64,000 nt of DNA, taken from NCBI RefSeq assembly GCF_016026235.1, contig NZ_CP065613.1. One strand, 5' to 3'. Below, one piece after another: positions 1 through 28,789 of this stretch. The first letter of the stretch is position 1. Every line of letters begins with the position of its first letter. The notes below the pieces were generated by a model that made no database searches, had not been told where the DNA came from, and worked only from the letters and a program-made list of their open reading frames with translations. The stretch is from Escherichia coli (GTDB lineage Bacteria > Pseudomonadota > Gammaproteobacteria > Enterobacterales > Enterobacteriaceae). Both the position numbers and the translations under genes were made by a program.

Positions 1-394
1 GAGGCATGATAAGCACTCCAGTCAATGAGTATCACAACACGAGACATTCCCCGCGTAATCTTTTGGGTAATTCGCTGAAAAATGGTGGAAACCTCATTTT
101 GCAAATGTCGATTCCCCAACAGTCGATCCACCCGCTTTATTTTGTTTTTAACTGATGCCGTACCGGTTAAATGACGCCCGATACTGGTAAGTGTGAGGGA
201 AGCGCCATTTATTACAGCATTAGTTGCGTCAATCAGTGATTTTTGACGGTAAAGATGCAAAGGGGCCAGTATGTTGTTAAGGAAATTTTGGCATAATGAA
301 CGTGCAGGCATAGTGGTGATCTCCTTGAAATTGTTAGCACAATCAATTAGATCACATCTCACTATGCCTGTCTTGTTTTCTGGGGATTCCTCAG
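1..394 (-). mobile_element. Partial copy (left end, first 394 bp) of an IS4-family IS10-like insertion sequence, running off the window start
   Basis: Bases 1-394 are the exact reverse complement of 35604-35997. Terminal inverted repeat TTTTCTGGGGATTCCTCAG at 376-394. Transposase start codon would be at 309-311 on the minus strand (partial CDS 1..311). Confidence 0.85.
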
Positions 395-452
395 GGGAAT
401 TCTCCGATCCCGGCTAGATTGTATTTTGTACAGGGAAATTAAAGTATGAAAC

Positions 453-478
453 GCGGGCACAGTTATCACCAGCCCGCG
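453..478 (-). terminator. GC-rich stem-loop downstream of uidR (possible terminator/attenuator)
   Basis: Inverted repeat CGCGGGC-N12-GCCCGCG immediately 3' of the uidR stop on the minus strand; weak U-tract. Confidence 0.35.
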
Positions 479-489
479 AAATGAGAGGA

Positions 490-1080
490 TCAGGATGCGG
501 TTAAGATACCGCCAATCATCGCGCGTAATCCCTGAGCAAACGACGCTTCACGCGCCAGATCTTCCGCTTCGATATCGGCCAGTACACCGTAGGTCAGATC
601 CAGCAGTAAACGTGAAGTCATTGACGTGTTGATGTCTGGGCTTATCTCGCCTTTTTGCTGGGCATCACGCATCCGCTCGGCAACAAATTCAGTGATCGTC
701 ATATGCTTATTTTTAAGCATGGCGGCGACCTGTGGGTTACGCATCCCTTCCGCCATAATTTCGACCACCAGCGCCCGTTGCCCAAAGGCTTCATGGGTGA
801 GAGAGACAATAGACTCGACCATATAGTCAACAAAATGAATCCCTTCAATCGGTTCCCGGAAACGGGCCAGCGCCCTCTCCTGGTCCTGTAAGATAATCGC
901 CTGAATCAAGGCTTCTTTGGAGATGAAATGGTGATAGAGCGTCCCGGGACTAATGGCGCAGGATTTACAGATGGCTTTCATCGAGGCACTGTGAAATCCA
1001 TTTTCTGAAAAAATCTCTCTGGCAGCATTGAGGATCCGGGTCCGTGTCGGTTGTGCTTCAGTCTGCATGTTATCCATCAT
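490..1080 (-). CDS. uidR: TetR-family repressor of the beta-glucuronidase (gus/uid) operon
   Basis: 196-aa ORF with N-terminal TetR-type HTH; sequence recognised as E. coli UidR/GusR; K-12 neighbourhood (hdhA, malI follow). Confidence 0.9.
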   Translation of the reverse strand: MMDNMQTEAQPTRTRILNAAREIFSENGFHSASMKAICKSCAISPGTLYHHFISKEALIQAIILQDQERALARFREPIEGIHFVDYMVESIVSLTHEAFGQRALVVEIMAEGMRNPQVAAMLKNKHMTITEFVAERMRDAQQKGEISPDINTSMTSRLLLDLTYGVLADIEAEDLAREASFAQGLRAMIGGILTAS

Positions 1081-1308
1081 TAAACCATTATAGTTAGCGT
1101 GAATAACTAGTTTACCGCGTTGTCAGGTGAGCGCCTATCATTGCTGTTGAATAGTGCGAAGGCACACTCTATCCGTATGCTTTTCATCCAGCTATTGGTT
1201 AACCAATAGCCGTGATTTGGCTGCCAGTTGTTTAGCAGAGACGTTGATGAATTGCACACGCTATCCCGGTAAACAACACATACGGCTGTTTACCGGTTCG
1301 TTAGTGTA

Positions 1309-2076
1309 TTAATTGAGCTCCTGTACCCCACCACCGGAGACGGTGAGAATTTGTCCGCTTACCCAGCTGGCTGCAGGCGAGCAAAGGAACAGCGCCGCGT
1401 TAGCAATATCTTGCGGTTGGCCCAGACGTCTGATCGGCGTGTGCTGTAACATTTTTTGTTCAATTTCTGGTGTAATAACGGATTTCAGGGCATCGGTTAA
1501 TATTGCCCCCGGCGCAATGCCATTCACCCGAATATTTTTTTCACCCAGGTCAAATGCCATATTTCTGACCAGATGACTGGCCGCAGCTTTAGATGATGCA
1601 TAGGAAGTCATGTTTATATTTTTATTTTCTGCCGCCATAGAAGTGATGGTCAGAATAACGCCACCGCCATTTTTTTCCATTTCTGGCGCAACAAGTTGTG
1701 ACAGATGGAAAAAAGAAAACACATTCAGTTCATAAGCACGGCGAAAATCCGCCATTGGCATATCAAACGGTTTAGGTCCACCGCCACCGGCGTTGTTAAC
1801 CAGAATATCAACTTTACCCAGCTTACTGATAGCAAAGTCTGCCAGTGCAGAGAGTTCCTGTTCGGAAGTAATATCACAACGGCAGGCAAATGCCTGACCA
1901 CCCAGTTGTTGAATTTCGTCTACAACATGGTTAGCTGCGTCGGCGTTAATATCACTGACCACCACAGATGCGCCAGCTGTCGCGAATGTAATGGCGATTT
2001 CTTTACCAATACCTGCACCCGCACCTGTGATGATGGCGCATTTTCCGTCGAGTCTCAGGTTGTCAGAATTAAACAC
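1309..2076 (-). CDS. hdhA: 7-alpha-hydroxysteroid dehydrogenase (short-chain dehydrogenase/reductase)
   Basis: 255 aa; N-terminal TGAGAGIG Rossmann motif and SDR catalytic YxxxK signature; matches E. coli HdhA. Confidence 0.9.
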   Translation of the reverse strand: MFNSDNLRLDGKCAIITGAGAGIGKEIAITFATAGASVVVSDINADAANHVVDEIQQLGGQAFACRCDITSEQELSALADFAISKLGKVDILVNNAGGGGPKPFDMPMADFRRAYELNVFSFFHLSQLVAPEMEKNGGGVILTITSMAAENKNINMTSYASSKAAASHLVRNMAFDLGEKNIRVNGIAPGAILTDALKSVITPEIEQKMLQHTPIRRLGQPQDIANAALFLCSPAASWVSGQILTVSGGGVQELN

Positions 2077-2187
2077 ATAAACCTCCTGTGAACTTCAGTA
2101 AAAATAAAAGGCACCGCCTGTGTGCCACATTTTTTATCATTAACCTTGAGGAAAGGACACTACCAGGTATAGCAGATAAAGAGAGGA

Positions 2188-4983
<2,796 letters not shown>

Positions 4984-24009: not shown

Positions 24010-24477
24010 ATGATTAAACGCGTATTGGTTGTTTCAATGGTAGGTCTGTCTCTTGTCGGTTGTGTTAATAACGACACCCTGTCAGGGGATGTTTATACCG
24101 CTTCTGAAGCGAAACAAGTACAGAATGTCAGCTATGGAACCATCGTTAACGTACGTCCGGTACAGATTCAGGGCGGTGATGATTCCAACGTTATCGGTGC
24201 AATTGGCGGTGCTGTTCTTGGTGGTTTCCTGGGAAATACTGTTGGTGGCGGAACCGGGCGTTCTCTGGCTACTGCAGCAGGCGCTGTTGCAGGTGGCGTA
24301 GCTGGTCAGGGCGTACAGAGTGCAATGAACAAAACGCAAGGTGTCGAGCTGGAAATTCGTAAAGACGATGGTAATACCATCATGGTGGTACAGAAACAAG
24401 GCAACACTCGTTTCTCTCCGGGCCAACGTGTCGTACTGGCCAGCAATGGCAGTCAGGTGACCGTTTCTCCGCGCTAA
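24010..24477 (+). CDS. slyB: Outer membrane lipoprotein SlyB
   Basis: 155 aa; lipoprotein signal (LVGC) and glycine-zipper region. Confidence 0.95.
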   Translation: MIKRVLVVSMVGLSLVGCVNNDTLSGDVYTASEAKQVQNVSYGTIVNVRPVQIQGGDDSNVIGAIGGAVLGGFLGNTVGGGTGRSLATAAGAVAGGVAGQGVQSAMNKTQGVELEIRKDDGNTIMVVQKQGNTRFSPGQRVVLASNGSQVTVSPR

Positions 24478-24485
24478 ATAAGTTT

Positions 24486-24513
24486 GCGTGTGGTCAGGTT
24501 ACTGACCACACGC
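24486..24513. terminator. Bidirectional terminator between convergent slyB and slyA
   Basis: Perfect hairpin GCGTGTGGTCAG-N4-CTGACCACACGC. Confidence 0.75.
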
Positions 24514-24523
24514 CCCCTTCATT

Positions 24524-24964
24524 TCACCCTTTGGCCTGTAACTCAATGATATTATGCTCAAGTTTTGCGATGAGCGTAATCAGTTGTTCCAGTTCCTCTG
24601 CGGAGATGCCATGTAAGATTTCCGCGCGGGTTTTGTTAATAACAGCTTCCATTTCGCTGATCAGTGGCTCTGCCTTTTCCGTCAGTTTAATACGTTTAGC
24701 CCGACGATCGCTGGCACAAGTTTGACGCGAAATTAACCCTTTTTCTTCCAGTTGGTCCAGAGTACGGACCAGTGATGGCTGCTCGATGCCAATCGCTTTT
24801 GCCAGTTGAATTTGCGACTGGTCTGGAGGTAACTGATGGATATTGTGTAACGTAACCCAATGGGTTTGTGTTAACTCCAGCGGTTTCAGGCGATGGTCTA
24901 TCAGAGCACGCCATATGCGCACCAACCGTGCCAGATCAGAACCTAGTGGTGATTCCAATTTCAT
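24524..24964 (-). CDS. slyA: MarR-family transcriptional regulator SlyA
   Basis: 146-codon ORF; winged-helix MarR domain; the start usually annotated may be the TTG two codons in (24958). Confidence 0.9.
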
Positions 24965-24974
24965 CTCCTTATAA

Positions 24975-24986
24975 TTAGCTTGCTAA
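24975..24986. promoter_or_regulatory. SlyA-box palindrome (TTAGCAAGCTAA on the minus strand)
   Basis: 12-bp sequence matching the SlyA consensus, 10 bp upstream of the slyA start, in the slyA/ydhIJK divergent region. Confidence 0.65.
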
Positions 24987-25158
24987 GATATTATGCGGCT
25001 TTTAGAATAGTGTGCAGCAATTGTATTGCTAAAACAAATGTATTGCTGCATTTGGTTACCGTCAGACATATTTTTCAGAAATTGCGCGTAAATTTTTCGC
25101 ACTTAAAGAATATTTATTAATCTAACGCAATATATTCGGTCGTAAAGGAATCTACTTT

Positions 25159-25395
25159 GTGAAGTTTATGCTCAATGCAACAGGATTGCCCTTACAAGAT
25201 CTGGTGTTCGGTGCGTCCGTCTACTTTCCTCCGTTTTTCAAAGCCTTCGCGTTTGGATTCGTCATCTGGCTTGTCGTACACCGCCTGCTTCGTGGCTGGA
25301 TCTACGCCGGTGACATCTGGCATCCCTTGTTAATGGATTTATCGCTGTTTGCGATTTGCGTTTGCCTTGCTCTGGCAATACTGATTGCGTGGTAA
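25159..25395 (+). CDS. ydhI: Small inner-membrane protein (DUF1656)
   Basis: 78 aa with two hydrophobic helices; first gene of ydhIJK. Confidence 0.85.
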
Positions 25396-25397
25396 CT

Positions 25398-26255
25398 ATG
25401 TCAATTAAAACAATTAAGTATTTCTCAACAATCATTGTAGCGATAGTTGCGGTTCTTGCCGGATGGTGGCTGTGGAATTATTACATGCAATCTCCGTGGA
25501 CACGCGACGGGAAAATACGCGCAGAACAGGTTTCTATCACCCCACAGGTGTCGGGACGTATTGTTGAGCTGAATATAAAAGACAACCAACTGGTTAACGC
25601 GGGGGATCTTCTGCTCACGATCGATAAAACGCCCTTTCAGATCGCCGAGCTGAATGCACAGGCTCAGCTGGCGAAAGCGCAATCTGACCTCGCAAAAGCC
25701 AATAACGAAGCGAATCGTCGTCGTCATCTCTCACAAAATTTTATTTCTGCCGAAGAACTCGATACCGCTAACCTCAATGTTAAAGCGATGCAGGCCAGTG
25801 TTGATGCCGCACAGGCGACGCTGAAACAGGCACAATGGCAACTGGCGCAAACGGAAATTCGCGCCCCAGTGAGTGGATGGGTGACTAACCTTACTACCCG
25901 CATCGGCGATTACGCTGATACCGGGAAACCGCTGTTTGCCCTTGTCGACAGCCACTCGTTTTACGTCATTGGTTATTTTGAAGAAACCAAGTTGCGCCAT
26001 ATCCGCGAAGGTGCACCAGCACAAATTACCCTCTATAGTGATAACAAAACGTTACAGGGTCACGTTTCCAGTATCGGTCGGGCGATTTATGATCAGAGCG
26101 TTGAAAGTGACTCAAGCCTTATTCCGGATGTGAAACCTAACGTCCCCTGGGTTCGTCTCGCCCAACGCGTTCCCGTCCGCTTTGCGCTGGATAAAGTTCC
26201 AGGCGATGTCACGCTGGTGTCGGGCACCACCTGTAGCATTGCCGTAGGTCAATAA
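25398..26255 (+). CDS. ydhJ: Membrane fusion protein (HlyD/EmrA-like periplasmic adaptor)
   Basis: 285 aa from ATG at 25398 (MSIKTIKYF...); N-terminal anchor, coiled-coil and barrel domain. Confidence 0.85.
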
Positions 26256-28267
26256 TGAACGCATCGTCATGGTCCTTGCGCAACTTGCCCTGGTTCAGGG
26301 CCACGCTGGCGCAATGGCGTTATGCGTTACGCAATACCATTGCTATGTGTCTGGCGCTGACGGTTGCCTATTATTTGAATCTGGATGAACCCTATTGGGC
26401 GATGACCTCGGCTGCAGTGGTTAGCTTTCCCACCGTTGGCGGTGTCATCAGCAAAAGCCTCGGACGCATCGCTGGCAGTTTACTGGGAGCCATTGCGGCA
26501 CTGCTTCTTGCCGGGCATACGCTCAATGAGCCGTGGTTTTTTCTATTGAGCATGTCGGCGTGGCTTGGCTTTTGTACCTGGGCCTGTGCGCACTTCACGA
26601 ATAACGTCGCGTATGCATTTCAACTGGCGGGCTACACGGCTGCCATCATCGCCTTTCCGATGGTTAATATTACTGAGGCCAGCCAGCTGTGGGATATCGC
26701 TCAGGCGCGCGTTTGCGAGGTGATTGTCGGTATTTTGTGCGGCGGCATGATGATGATGATCCTGCCGAGCAGTTCCGATGCTACAGCCCTTTTAACCGCA
26801 TTGAAAAACATGCACGCCCGATTACTGGAACATGCCAGTTTACTCTGGCAGCCTGAAACAACCGATGCCATTCGTGCAGCACATGAAGGGGTGATTGGGC
26901 AGATACTGACCATGAATTTGCTGCGTATCCAGGCTTTCTGGAGCCACTATCGTTTTCGCCAGCAAAACGCGCGCCTTAATGCGCTGCTCCACCAGCAATT
27001 ACGTATGACCAGTGTCATCTCCAGCCTGCGACGTATGTTGCTCAACTGGCCCTCACCGCCAGGTGCCACGCGAGAAATTCTCGAACAGTTGCTGACGGCG
27101 CTCGCCAGTTCGCAAACAGATGTTTACACCGTCGCACGTATTATCGCCCCGCTACGCCCGACCAACGTCGCCGACTATCGGCACGTCGCCTTCTGGCAGC
27201 GACTACGTTATTTTTGCCGCCTTTATCTGCAAAGTAGTCAGGAATTACATCGTCTGCAAAGCGATGTAGATGATCATGCCAGACTCCCACGGACATCCGG
27301 CCTGGCTCGTCATACCGATAACGCCGAAGCTATGTGGAGCGGGCTGCGTACATTTTGTACGTTGATGATGATTGGCGCATGGAGTATTGCTTCGCAATGG
27401 GATGCCGGTGCCAATGCATTAACGCTGGCAGCGATTAGCTGCGTACTCTACTCCGCCGTCGCAGCACCGTTTAAGTCGTTGTCACTGCTGATGCGCACGC
27501 TGGTGTTACTTTCGCTATTCAGCTTTGTGGTCAAATTTGGTCTGATGGTCCAGATTAGCGATCTGTGGCAATTTTTGTTGTTTCTCTTTCCACTGCTGGC
27601 GACAATGCAGCTTCTTAAATTGCAGATGCCCAAATTTGCCGCGTTGTGGGGGCAACTGATTGTTTTTATGGGTTCTTTTATCGCCGTCACTAATCCCTCG
27701 GTGTATGATTTTGCTGATTTTCTTAACGATAATCTGGCGAAAATCGTTGGCGTCGCGTTGGCGTGGTTAGCGTTCGCCATTCTGCGTCCAGGATCGGATG
27801 CTCGCAAAAGCCGCCGCCATATTCGCGCGCTGCGCCGGGATTTTGTCGATCAACTAAGCCGCCATCCAACACTGAGTGAAAGCGAATTTGAATCGCTCAC
27901 TTATCATCACGTCAGTCAGTTGAGTAACAGCCAGGATGCGCTGGCTCGCCGTTGGTTATTACGCTGGGGTGTAGTGCTGCTGAACTGTTCTCATGTTGTC
28001 TGGCAATTACGCGACTGGGAATCGCGTTCCGATCCGTTATCGCGAGTACGGGATAACTGTATTTCACTGTTGCGGGGAGTGATGAGTGAGCGTGGCGTTC
28101 AGCAAAAATCACTGGCGGCCACACTTGAAGAATTACAGCGGATTTGCGACAGCCTTGCCCGTCATCATCAACCTGCCGCCCGTGAGCTGGCGGCAATTGT
28201 CTGGCGGCTGTACTGCTCGCTTTCGCAACTTGAGCAAGCACCACCGCAAGGTACGCTGGCCTCTTAA
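26255..28267 (+). CDS. ydhK: Fusaric acid resistance (FUSC/AaeB)-family efflux membrane protein
   Basis: 670 aa; two clusters of transmembrane helices separated by a cytoplasmic domain; start overlaps ydhJ stop. Confidence 0.85.
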
Positions 28268-28789
28268 TTACTTAATTACACCACAGGCATAGCGTTCACC
28301 GCCACCGCCCAGCGGTTTAGGTTGATCGGACATATTATCGCCGCCAACGTGGACCATCAGCGCTTTGTCTTTGATTTCATCCAGTGATTTCAGACGAGGC
28401 GCGATGACGGCATCGGTAGCTTTGCCGTCATTATTGACGACCAGTGCAGGCAGATCGCCTAAATGCCCGGCACCTTCTGGCCCTTCATGTTTACCGGTAT
28501 TTTGTGGATCAAGATGCCCGCCTGCGGATTCCGCGGCGCTGGCTTTGCCATCTTTGGTGGCTGGCTGGCAGCTTCCTTTGGCATGAATATGGAAGCCATA
28601 TTCACCGGGGGGTAATGCTTTCAGATCGGGCGAAAACTCCAGACCTTTATCGGTTTCAGTAATGGTGACGCTACCAATTGACTGCCCAACCCCTTGCGAC
28701 GTGACGAGGTTCATCTCGACTTTTTCACTGGCAGCTTGTGCGCCGGTCGCAACAACCAGCGCCAGAATGGCCAGACTAAAACGTTTCAT
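28268..28789 (-). CDS. sodC: Periplasmic Cu,Zn superoxide dismutase
   Basis: 173 aa from ATG at 28789 (MKRFSLAILALVVATGAQA signal peptide); Cu/Zn-SOD His ligands. Confidence 0.9.
   Translation of the reverse strand: MKRFSLAILALVVATGAQAASEKVEMNLVTSQGVGQSIGSVTITETDKGLEFSPDLKALPPGEYGFHIHAKGSCQPATKDGKASAAESAGGHLDPQNTGKHEGPEGAGHLGDLPALVVNNDGKATDAVIAPRLKSLDEIKDKALMVHVGGDNMSDQPKPLGGGGERYACGVIK

Follow-up and report, generated by a model that had tools for sequence, protein, structure and literature searches.

Within the 64,000-nucleotide (nt) stretch of Escherichia coli contig NZ_CP065613.1 analyzed here (assembly GCF_016026235.1), hereafter the window, the gene slyA, which encodes a transcriptional regulator of the MarR family, lies back to back with three genes, ydhI, ydhJ, and ydhK, that encode a putative efflux system. 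The two transcription units are separated by 200 base pairs (bp) of AT-rich DNA (31.5% GC), and this region, shared by both, holds a 12-bp sequence, hereafter the box, that agrees at every position with the published recognition sequence of SlyA, i.e., the locus has the build of a divergent regulator-pump module. An initial annotation, made from the sequence alone, had described slyA as divergent from genes for a small membrane protein, an HlyD-like adaptor, and a FUSC-type protein, and both the protein family scans and the gene names given by RefSeq (slyA, ydhI, ydhJ, and ydhK) agree with that description. The explanation that accounts best for the data collected here, and that we consider likely, is that the box is a genuine high-affinity SlyA operator, with SlyA autoregulating slyA and controlling ydhIJK.

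The identity of the proteins was examined at the level of families and of solved structures. SlyA reaches 277.4 bits against the NCBIfam equivalog NF002926 (cut-off 120), aligning with profile positions 1–143 of 144, and thus belongs to that family; in addition, it contains the MarR domain of Pfam (60.1 bits against a cut-off of 24.6) and, in a sequence search of the PDB, matches the solved SlyA structures 3q5f (E = 1.9e-79), 3qpt, and 3deu. Regarding the genes on the opposite strand, YdhI is recognized by the DUF1656 profile PF07869 (53.9 bits, cut-off 26.5), YdhJ by HlyD_3, HlyD_D23, and the RND_mfp subfamily (135 bits against 94.9 for the last of these), and YdhK by the FUSC profile PF04632 (469 bits, cut-off 30.9), while the PDB sequence search returned no sequence-detectable homologue of solved structure for YdhK. 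Because only 2 nt separate the stop codon of ydhI from the start of ydhJ, and because the TAA of ydhJ and the ATG of ydhK share one nucleotide (TAATG), the three genes are taken to form a translationally coupled operon. The slyA-ydhIJK locus belongs to the core genome of E. coli, as 5425 of 5426 complete genomes have it, and a 221-bp query covering the intergenic region matches 5340 of 5423 genomes of this species at 99% identity or more. The coordinates of the genes, and of the sites and promoter-like elements between them, are collected in Table 1.

Table 1. Genes, SlyA-like sites, and other elements of the slyA-ydhIJK locus; positions are those of the window
Feature	Position	Strand	Description
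slyA	24524..24958	minus	RefSeq coding sequence; 144-amino acid (aa) MarR-family winged-helix regulator, TTG start at 24958
Conserved slyA-proximal block	24950-25045 (intergenic part 24959..25045)		Nearly invariant columns, 81 sequences
SlyA box TTAGCAAGCTAA	24975..24986	minus	12/12 to the published consensus; plus strand reads TTAGCTTGCTAA
Promoter-like element facing ydhI (hypothetical)	24980..25008	plus	TTGCTA (24980-24985), 17-nt spacer, TAGAAT (25003-25008); 9/12 in promoter scan
Site 2, SlyA-like, candidate, TTAGCAATACAA	25021..25032	minus	9/12; centre 46 bp from box centre; direct repeat of the box region
Candidate slyA -10 hexamer TACATT	25037..25042	minus	Relaxed promoter scan; within ATACATTTG
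Variable ydhI-proximal part, ~100 bp	25046..25145		Poorly conserved columns, 81 sequences
Site 3, SlyA-like, TTATTAATCTAA	25114..25125	plus	9/12; fits TTAN6TAA; 33 bp upstream of the ydhI GTG
ydhI Shine-Dalgarno AAGGA	25145-25149	plus	
ydhI	25159..25395	plus	78-aa DUF1656 small membrane protein, AaeX-like, GTG start
ydhJ	25398..26255	plus	285-aa HlyD/AaeA-like periplasmic adaptor
ydhK	26255..28267	plus	670-aa FUSC-family (AaeB-like) inner-membrane transporter

The distance between the box and slyA depends on the codon from which the gene is translated. In the list of open reading frames (ORFs), the longest version of slyA spans 24524-24964 on the minus strand, has 146 aa, and reaches an ATG at 24964. 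In all likelihood translation begins at the TTG at 24958, and the ATG was rejected for reasons that come from different sources: RefSeq places the start at the TTG; the SlyA profile NF002926 begins at residue 3 of the longest ORF; the Shine-Dalgarno sequence AAGGAG (24970..24965, minus strand), invariant in a multi-genus alignment of the intergenic region, stands 6 nt from the TTG and abuts the ATG; and the equivalent of the ATG is missing in the distant genera Yersinia, Hafnia, Edwardsiella, and Sodalis, which keep a TTG or a GTG. Counted upstream from the TTG, the box is reached after 16 bp, not 10, and its centre after 22 bp, the same figure as that found in Table 3 of PMC5797941. Accordingly, the initial annotation was right in placing a consensus box upstream of slyA in the shared region, and only the distance it gave, 10 bp, has to be replaced, as this value holds for the ATG at 24964 alone.

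For the comparison across species, the Enterobacteriaceae were sampled with one genome per species (80 loci), and 10 loci from other families of Enterobacterales were fetched through homologous proteins; a first homology search with the E. coli SlyA had returned only relatives of at least 82% identity. In 89 of these 90 Enterobacterales loci slyA starts with a codon other than ATG, namely TTG or, in Serratia and Gibbsiella, GTG, and the conservation of so weak a start codon suggests selection for limited translation of slyA.

PMC5797941 cites two descriptions of the SlyA site, the consensus TTAGCAAGCTAA (Stapleton 2002) and the shorter TTAN6TAA (Haider 2008), and the box fits the second as well as the first. 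It is the sole match to the consensus without any mismatch in the window, so the 12-bp SlyA site that had been proposed at 24975-24986 is both exact and unique in 64 kb. On the basis of composition, 0.0073–0.0077 exact matches are expected per 64 kb when both strands are counted, and 4e-5 in the 200-bp intergenic region. When up to two mismatches are tolerated, five matches occur in the window and 5.56 are expected from shuffled sequence, i.e., there is no enrichment, and for this reason only the exactness and the location of the box carry weight. Regarding sites that agree with the consensus in at least 9 of 12 positions, the window contains 40, and three of these sit between slyA and ydhI, against an expectation of 0.125 for those 200 bp.

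The exact 12-mer recurs in 78 of the 80 Enterobacteriaceae species, always 16 bp upstream of where slyA starts except in one locus (L042), where the distance is 15 bp, and in the other two species it differs by a single base. L042 is also the only one of the 78 loci with the exact box in which slyA does not start with TTG. The pump genes ydhJ and ydhK are divergent from slyA in 78 of the 80 species, and the two that lack them, Intestinirhabdus and Kosakonia oryziphila, keep the box at 12/12.

The box also coincides with a site that has been the object of biochemical work. Curran et al. (2017, PMC5797941) list TTAGCAAGCTAA, located 22 bp upstream of slyA and named PslyA, as a candidate site in E. 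coli K-12, and report that SlyA shifts a 200-bp fragment of the K-12 slyA-ydhI region in gel electrophoresis, with an apparent dissociation constant of ~50–100 nM. The primers used for that gel shift map to positions 24959-25158 of the window, and thus the binding assay that had been suggested as a check of the site is already in print for a fragment that contains the box.

As for regulation, transcription of the Salmonella template in vitro with purified components has shown that SlyA represses ydhI ~19-fold and slyA ~5.3-fold, and that salicylate relieves the repression of both genes, with the value for ydhI falling from 19-fold to 3.2-fold (PMC6401476). In the same organism, deletion of ydhIJK slows growth when fusaric acid is present and makes the cells more sensitive to it, while a slyA mutant is more resistant (PMC6401476). 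RNA sequencing (RNA-seq) places ydhIJK among the genes repressed by SlyA (Will & Fang 2025, PMC12506092), and the same report names 4-hydroxybenzoate and 2,3-dihydroxybenzoate as endogenous ligands of SlyA and describes YdhIJK's physiological role as still to be determined. Moreover, in Klebsiella, disruption of kvrA, the orthologue of slyA, raises YdhJ by 45-fold to more than 100-fold (bioRxiv 10.1101/845925). Together with the gel shift and the repression in vitro, the last two studies establish by experiment that SlyA controls ydhIJK, which supports the proposal made for the putative efflux system.

The intergenic region itself is made of two halves of different conservation (Table 1), a pattern that agrees with a published description, in which ~95 bp next to slyA are conserved and the segment on the ydhI side carries extensive mutation (PMC6401476). 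Besides the box and site 2, the conserved block contains the slyA Shine-Dalgarno sequence and two motifs, TTTTAGAATAGTGTGCAG and ATACATTTG (25033-25041, minus strand). The conservation of ATACATTTG runs deep; it is found ~75–83 nt upstream of the slyA start and is kept in Yersinia, Serratia, Hafnia, and Sodalis. This last motif is a candidate for the core promoter of slyA/rovA, including the -10 hexamer and the transcription start. The relaxed promoter scan and the deep conservation of ATACATTTG point to a slyA transcription start near 25030, and the box would then occupy about +45 to +56 of the leader. Regarding the two additional SlyA-like sites, site 2 is kept in Escherichia and some Citrobacter and is altered in Salmonella, as seen in the alignment, and site 3, which falls within the variable half, corresponds to the site TTAGATTAATAA that Table 3 of PMC5797941 places 161 bp upstream of slyA.

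Other features of the same region can be noted here. Site 2 is flanked by a perfect 9-nt inverted repeat, TGCAGCAAT / ATTGCTGCA, at 25013-25021 and 25042-25050 within the conserved block, and the same stretch carries a direct repeat, CAAT/ATGTATTGCT, at 25018-25030 and 25035-25047; these repeats may be extra SlyA half-sites (AGCAA) or the sites of another regulator. A search of positions 24400-25500 with Rfam found no known RNA element, the only hits being two sub-threshold chance matches to eukaryotic snoRNAs. In the blood isolate E. coli 4238 (L088; NZ_CP103533.1, ~1-3000), an ISEcp1-blaCTX-M-55 transposition unit is inserted in the slyA-ydhI intergenic region, at a point equivalent to about position 25030 of the window and roughly at site 2, where it parts ydhIJK from the box and slyA.

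The mechanism that we propose for the operator begins with SlyA, a MarR-family dimer encoded by the adjacent gene, which would bind the box in the promoter-proximal or leader region of slyA, with the weaker SlyA-like sites at 25021-25032 and 25114-25125 flanking it as possible additional contacts. Free of ligand, SlyA would occupy the shared region, and in doing so would autoregulate slyA and control the divergent ydhIJK, presumed to encode an AaeXAB-like pump for aromatic carboxylic acids. Binding of salicylate, benzoate, 4-hydroxybenzoate, or 2,3-dihydroxybenzoate would release SlyA from its high-affinity DNA, and the pump would be derepressed. In this scheme the box would act mainly on slyA, as a roadblock downstream of the transcription start, while repression of ydhI would be exerted by SlyA at the weaker distal sites or by spreading from the box. 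The whole would represent an ancestral MarR circuit, in which a local repressor and sensor is paired with an efflux pump.

Some observations speak against this picture and have to be set beside it. According to the title of a 2007 paper by Corbett, slyA is reportedly positively autoregulated. In E. coli MG1655, overproduction of SlyA increases ydhIJK expression 2.2-fold (PMC5797941), and, in view of these two items, SlyA may regulate in another direction in E. coli than it does in Salmonella and Klebsiella. In addition, the salicylate-sensitive footprint near the -35 of Salmonella ydhI covers a 12-bp site that is 75% identical to the consensus (PMC6401476), and, matching only to this extent, the site is not the perfect box. 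Besides the box, the best site in the Salmonella loci retrieved, and the sole one listed there at 9/12, is TTGGTAAGCAAA, 92 bp upstream of slyA, and its E. coli counterpart at 25051-25062, which is likely to be that of the footprinted site too, reaches just 6/12. Finally, the position of the box relative to the slyA and ydhI promoters is one that we infer.

Part of these observations would be accommodated if SlyA in E. coli acted at this AT-rich region mainly as an anti-silencer or activator that opposes H-NS, with the box serving to raise the expression of both slyA and ydhIJK, an explanation that does not exclude an operator and that we hold to be possible, although somewhat improbable. It draws on the 2.2-fold rise and on the label "SlyA-activated divergent operons" that the authors of PMC5797941 attach to these genes, on the wording "positively autoregulated" in Corbett's title, on the low GC content of the intergenic region, and on the degeneracy in E. 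coli (6/12) of the equivalent of the Salmonella ydhI -35 site. The rise, however, is small and was obtained by overproduction, and in the same study ydhIJK bears only one of the cross-reference marks that most other up-regulated operons carry (PMC5797941). Furthermore, slyA expression is reported by Corbett (2007) to be independent of H-NS, transcription with purified components in Salmonella shows direct repression (PMC6401476), and derepression by more than 45-fold is seen in Klebsiella with an identical box and the same architecture.

A different explanation makes the box itself the operator of ydhIJK. The -35 hexamer of the promoter-like element that faces ydhI, TTGCTA, falls inside the box, of which it would form the right half, and with TAGAAT as the -10 hexamer a single SlyA dimer would block RNA polymerase at PydhI and at the same time obstruct the slyA leader; the leader of ydhIJK would measure ~143 nt. 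A box placed on a -35 hexamer is the classical geometry of divergent operators of the MarR type, the element emerges from the promoter scan with the score given in Table 1, and both hexamers and their spacing are invariant in 11 aligned genera of Enterobacteriaceae and at least 90% conserved over 81 sequences. This conservation is nevertheless unspecific, because the whole 95-bp block is conserved, and the one match found in 1.1 kb is below the number expected by chance (mean 1.9). Moreover, the element is not conserved in Yersinia and Hafnia, although both keep the box and ydhIJK, and in Salmonella it is the 75%-match site, not the perfect box, that is located at the -35 of the mapped ydhI start (PMC6401476). 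We regard it as unlikely that the box is the operator of ydhIJK in this way.

That the 12-mer is a match without function, produced by chance, has a probability close to nil and was ruled out by its conservation and the published gel shift: although matches with up to two mismatches are no more frequent in the window than in shuffled sequence (5 versus 5.56), for an exact one the expectation is 0.0075 per 64 kb and 4e-5 within the 200-bp region, the box is directly upstream of the gene for the very protein that recognizes it, 78 of 80 species have the identical sequence at this offset, and the fragment is shifted by SlyA (PMC5797941).

Returning to the operator at slyA, the loci from beyond the Enterobacteriaceae show how the box fares at greater distances, always at the offset of 16 bp. 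It scores 11/12 in Hafnia, which has ydhIJK, and in Serratia, in which ydhJ is present and ydhK is split, and 10/12 in Yersinia aldovae and Yersinia enterocolitica, both with ydhIJK, as well as in Yersinia pestis, which has lost these genes. The remaining lineages have all lost ydhIJK, and the box is found at 9/12 in Photorhabdus and Edwardsiella, at 8/12 in Sodalis, and not at all in Gibbsiella and Moellerella. As it is kept after the loss of ydhIJK in Intestinirhabdus, Kosakonia oryziphila, and Y. pestis, the box is tied to slyA itself. At the same time, these figures offer a lead: the box appears to decay, to 9/12 or below or to nothing, in lineages whose loss of the pump is old, and to stay at 10/12 or above where the pump is kept or was lost recently. 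The sample is small and phylogenetically confounded, and hence the association of box and pump is presented as a lead only. As a separate observation on Serratia, ydhK is called in locus L083 (positions 181-2213 and 3080-3501) as two ORFs (468 and 205 aa), ydhI is not called, and the box, which differs from the consensus at one position, is perfectly palindromic, TTAGCATGCTAA; the gene calls suggest that this may be a pump operon in decay.

If the lead is correct, strong autorepression by SlyA would be kept only while the circuit of sensor and pump is intact, and would disappear once SlyA turns into a counter-silencer that is dedicated and highly expressed; the link between box and pump would then extend, at the level of sequence, the hypothesis of Will et al. 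(2019, PMC6401476). Taken jointly, the two readings that tie the box more closely to the pump, i.e., that it is a shared dual operator forming the -35 of the ydhI promoter and that selection on it is linked to the pump, are viewed here as tentative and rather less than likely.

With respect to the standing of these results, the locus, the exact site, the binding of SlyA to the fragment, the regulation of ydhIJK, and the resistance phenotype have already been published, between 2002 and 2025. The locus is thus of value as a positive control, in which a real operator and a regulator-pump module were recognized from raw sequence alone. The initial annotation holds as a whole, with the exception of the 10 bp corrected above to 16 bp, and the checks that it proposed are largely available in print. 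What the present comparison contributes is the small lead concerning the decay of the box in lineages that lost the pump long ago.

The surroundings of the locus complete its description. In RefSeq, anmK and slyB are its neighbours at one end, and sodC and ydhF at the other. As slyB and slyA converge, a GC-rich hairpin with a 12-bp stem (24486..24513) stands between them and is accompanied by a run of T on the minus strand, and is probably the terminator of slyA, possibly acting in both directions. At the other end, the TAA of ydhK on the plus strand and the stop codon of sodC (TTA on the plus strand, i.e., TAA on the minus strand) directly adjoin at 28265-28270, with zero intergenic bases and no terminator between the two genes, and the junction, TTAATTACTTAA, fits TTAN6TAA by chance.

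Among the known systems, the one in the window is itself the slyA-ydhIJK locus of E. coli, as studied in K-12 MG1655 (PMC5797941; Corbett et al. 2007), which has the same organization, the same 12-mer, and the same second site, and whose gel-shift fragment is identical to positions 24959-25158, with no difference of substance. The strain of the window is not K-12, and the closest record listed is E. coli FDAARGOS_943, 99.9% identical over a 4-kb query. Salmonella Typhimurium shares the divergent architecture and a SlyA that is ~91% identical, and its SlyA is an autorepressor that also represses ydhI and is released by aromatic carboxylates. In the loci of Salmonella enterica subspecies (L026 and L032) the exact box precedes the TTG by 16 bp, as in E. 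coli, whereas the two organisms have diverged in the distal half of the intergenic region. They differ in other respects as well, as the slyA promoter of E. coli is reported to be ~10-fold weaker under inducing conditions, and ydhIJK goes up on overproduction of SlyA in E. coli (PMC5797941) while it is repressed in Salmonella. In Klebsiella pneumoniae, the orthologous regulator kvrA is likewise divergent from ydhIJK, and the Klebsiella loci retrieved have the exact box at the same offset, whereas the distal intergenic region is not alignable.

A second term of comparison is the E. coli aaeR-aaeXAB system (Van Dyk et al. 2004, cited in PMC12506092), with which ydhIJK shares the gene order and the families (DUF1656, HlyD-type, and FUSC/AaeB); ydhIJK, like aaeXAB, is described as a putative exporter of aromatic carboxylates. 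The three genes of the window have these families in the AaeXAB order and are coupled. However, their best NCBIfam matches, AaeX, AaeA, and AaeB, are all under the equivalog cut-offs (21.4 versus 82, 243.7 versus 400, and 121.7 versus 870 bits, respectively), and for this reason ydhIJK is considered a paralogue, not an orthologue, of the p-hydroxybenzoate pump. The aae system is regulated by AaeR, which is of the LysR type and does not belong to the MarR proteins. The identity between the pumps is 34% for YdhJ and AaeA and 21% for YdhK and AaeB (PMC12506092).

Finally, in mprA(emrR)-emrAB and marRAB, as in the SlyA module, a MarR dimer of the winged-helix type acts on a palindromic operator, is released by aromatic carboxylates, and controls a pump. 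SlyA departs from these classical MarR pairs in being also a global counter-silencer of H-NS, and in that its gene is divergent from the pump operon instead of being the first gene in it.

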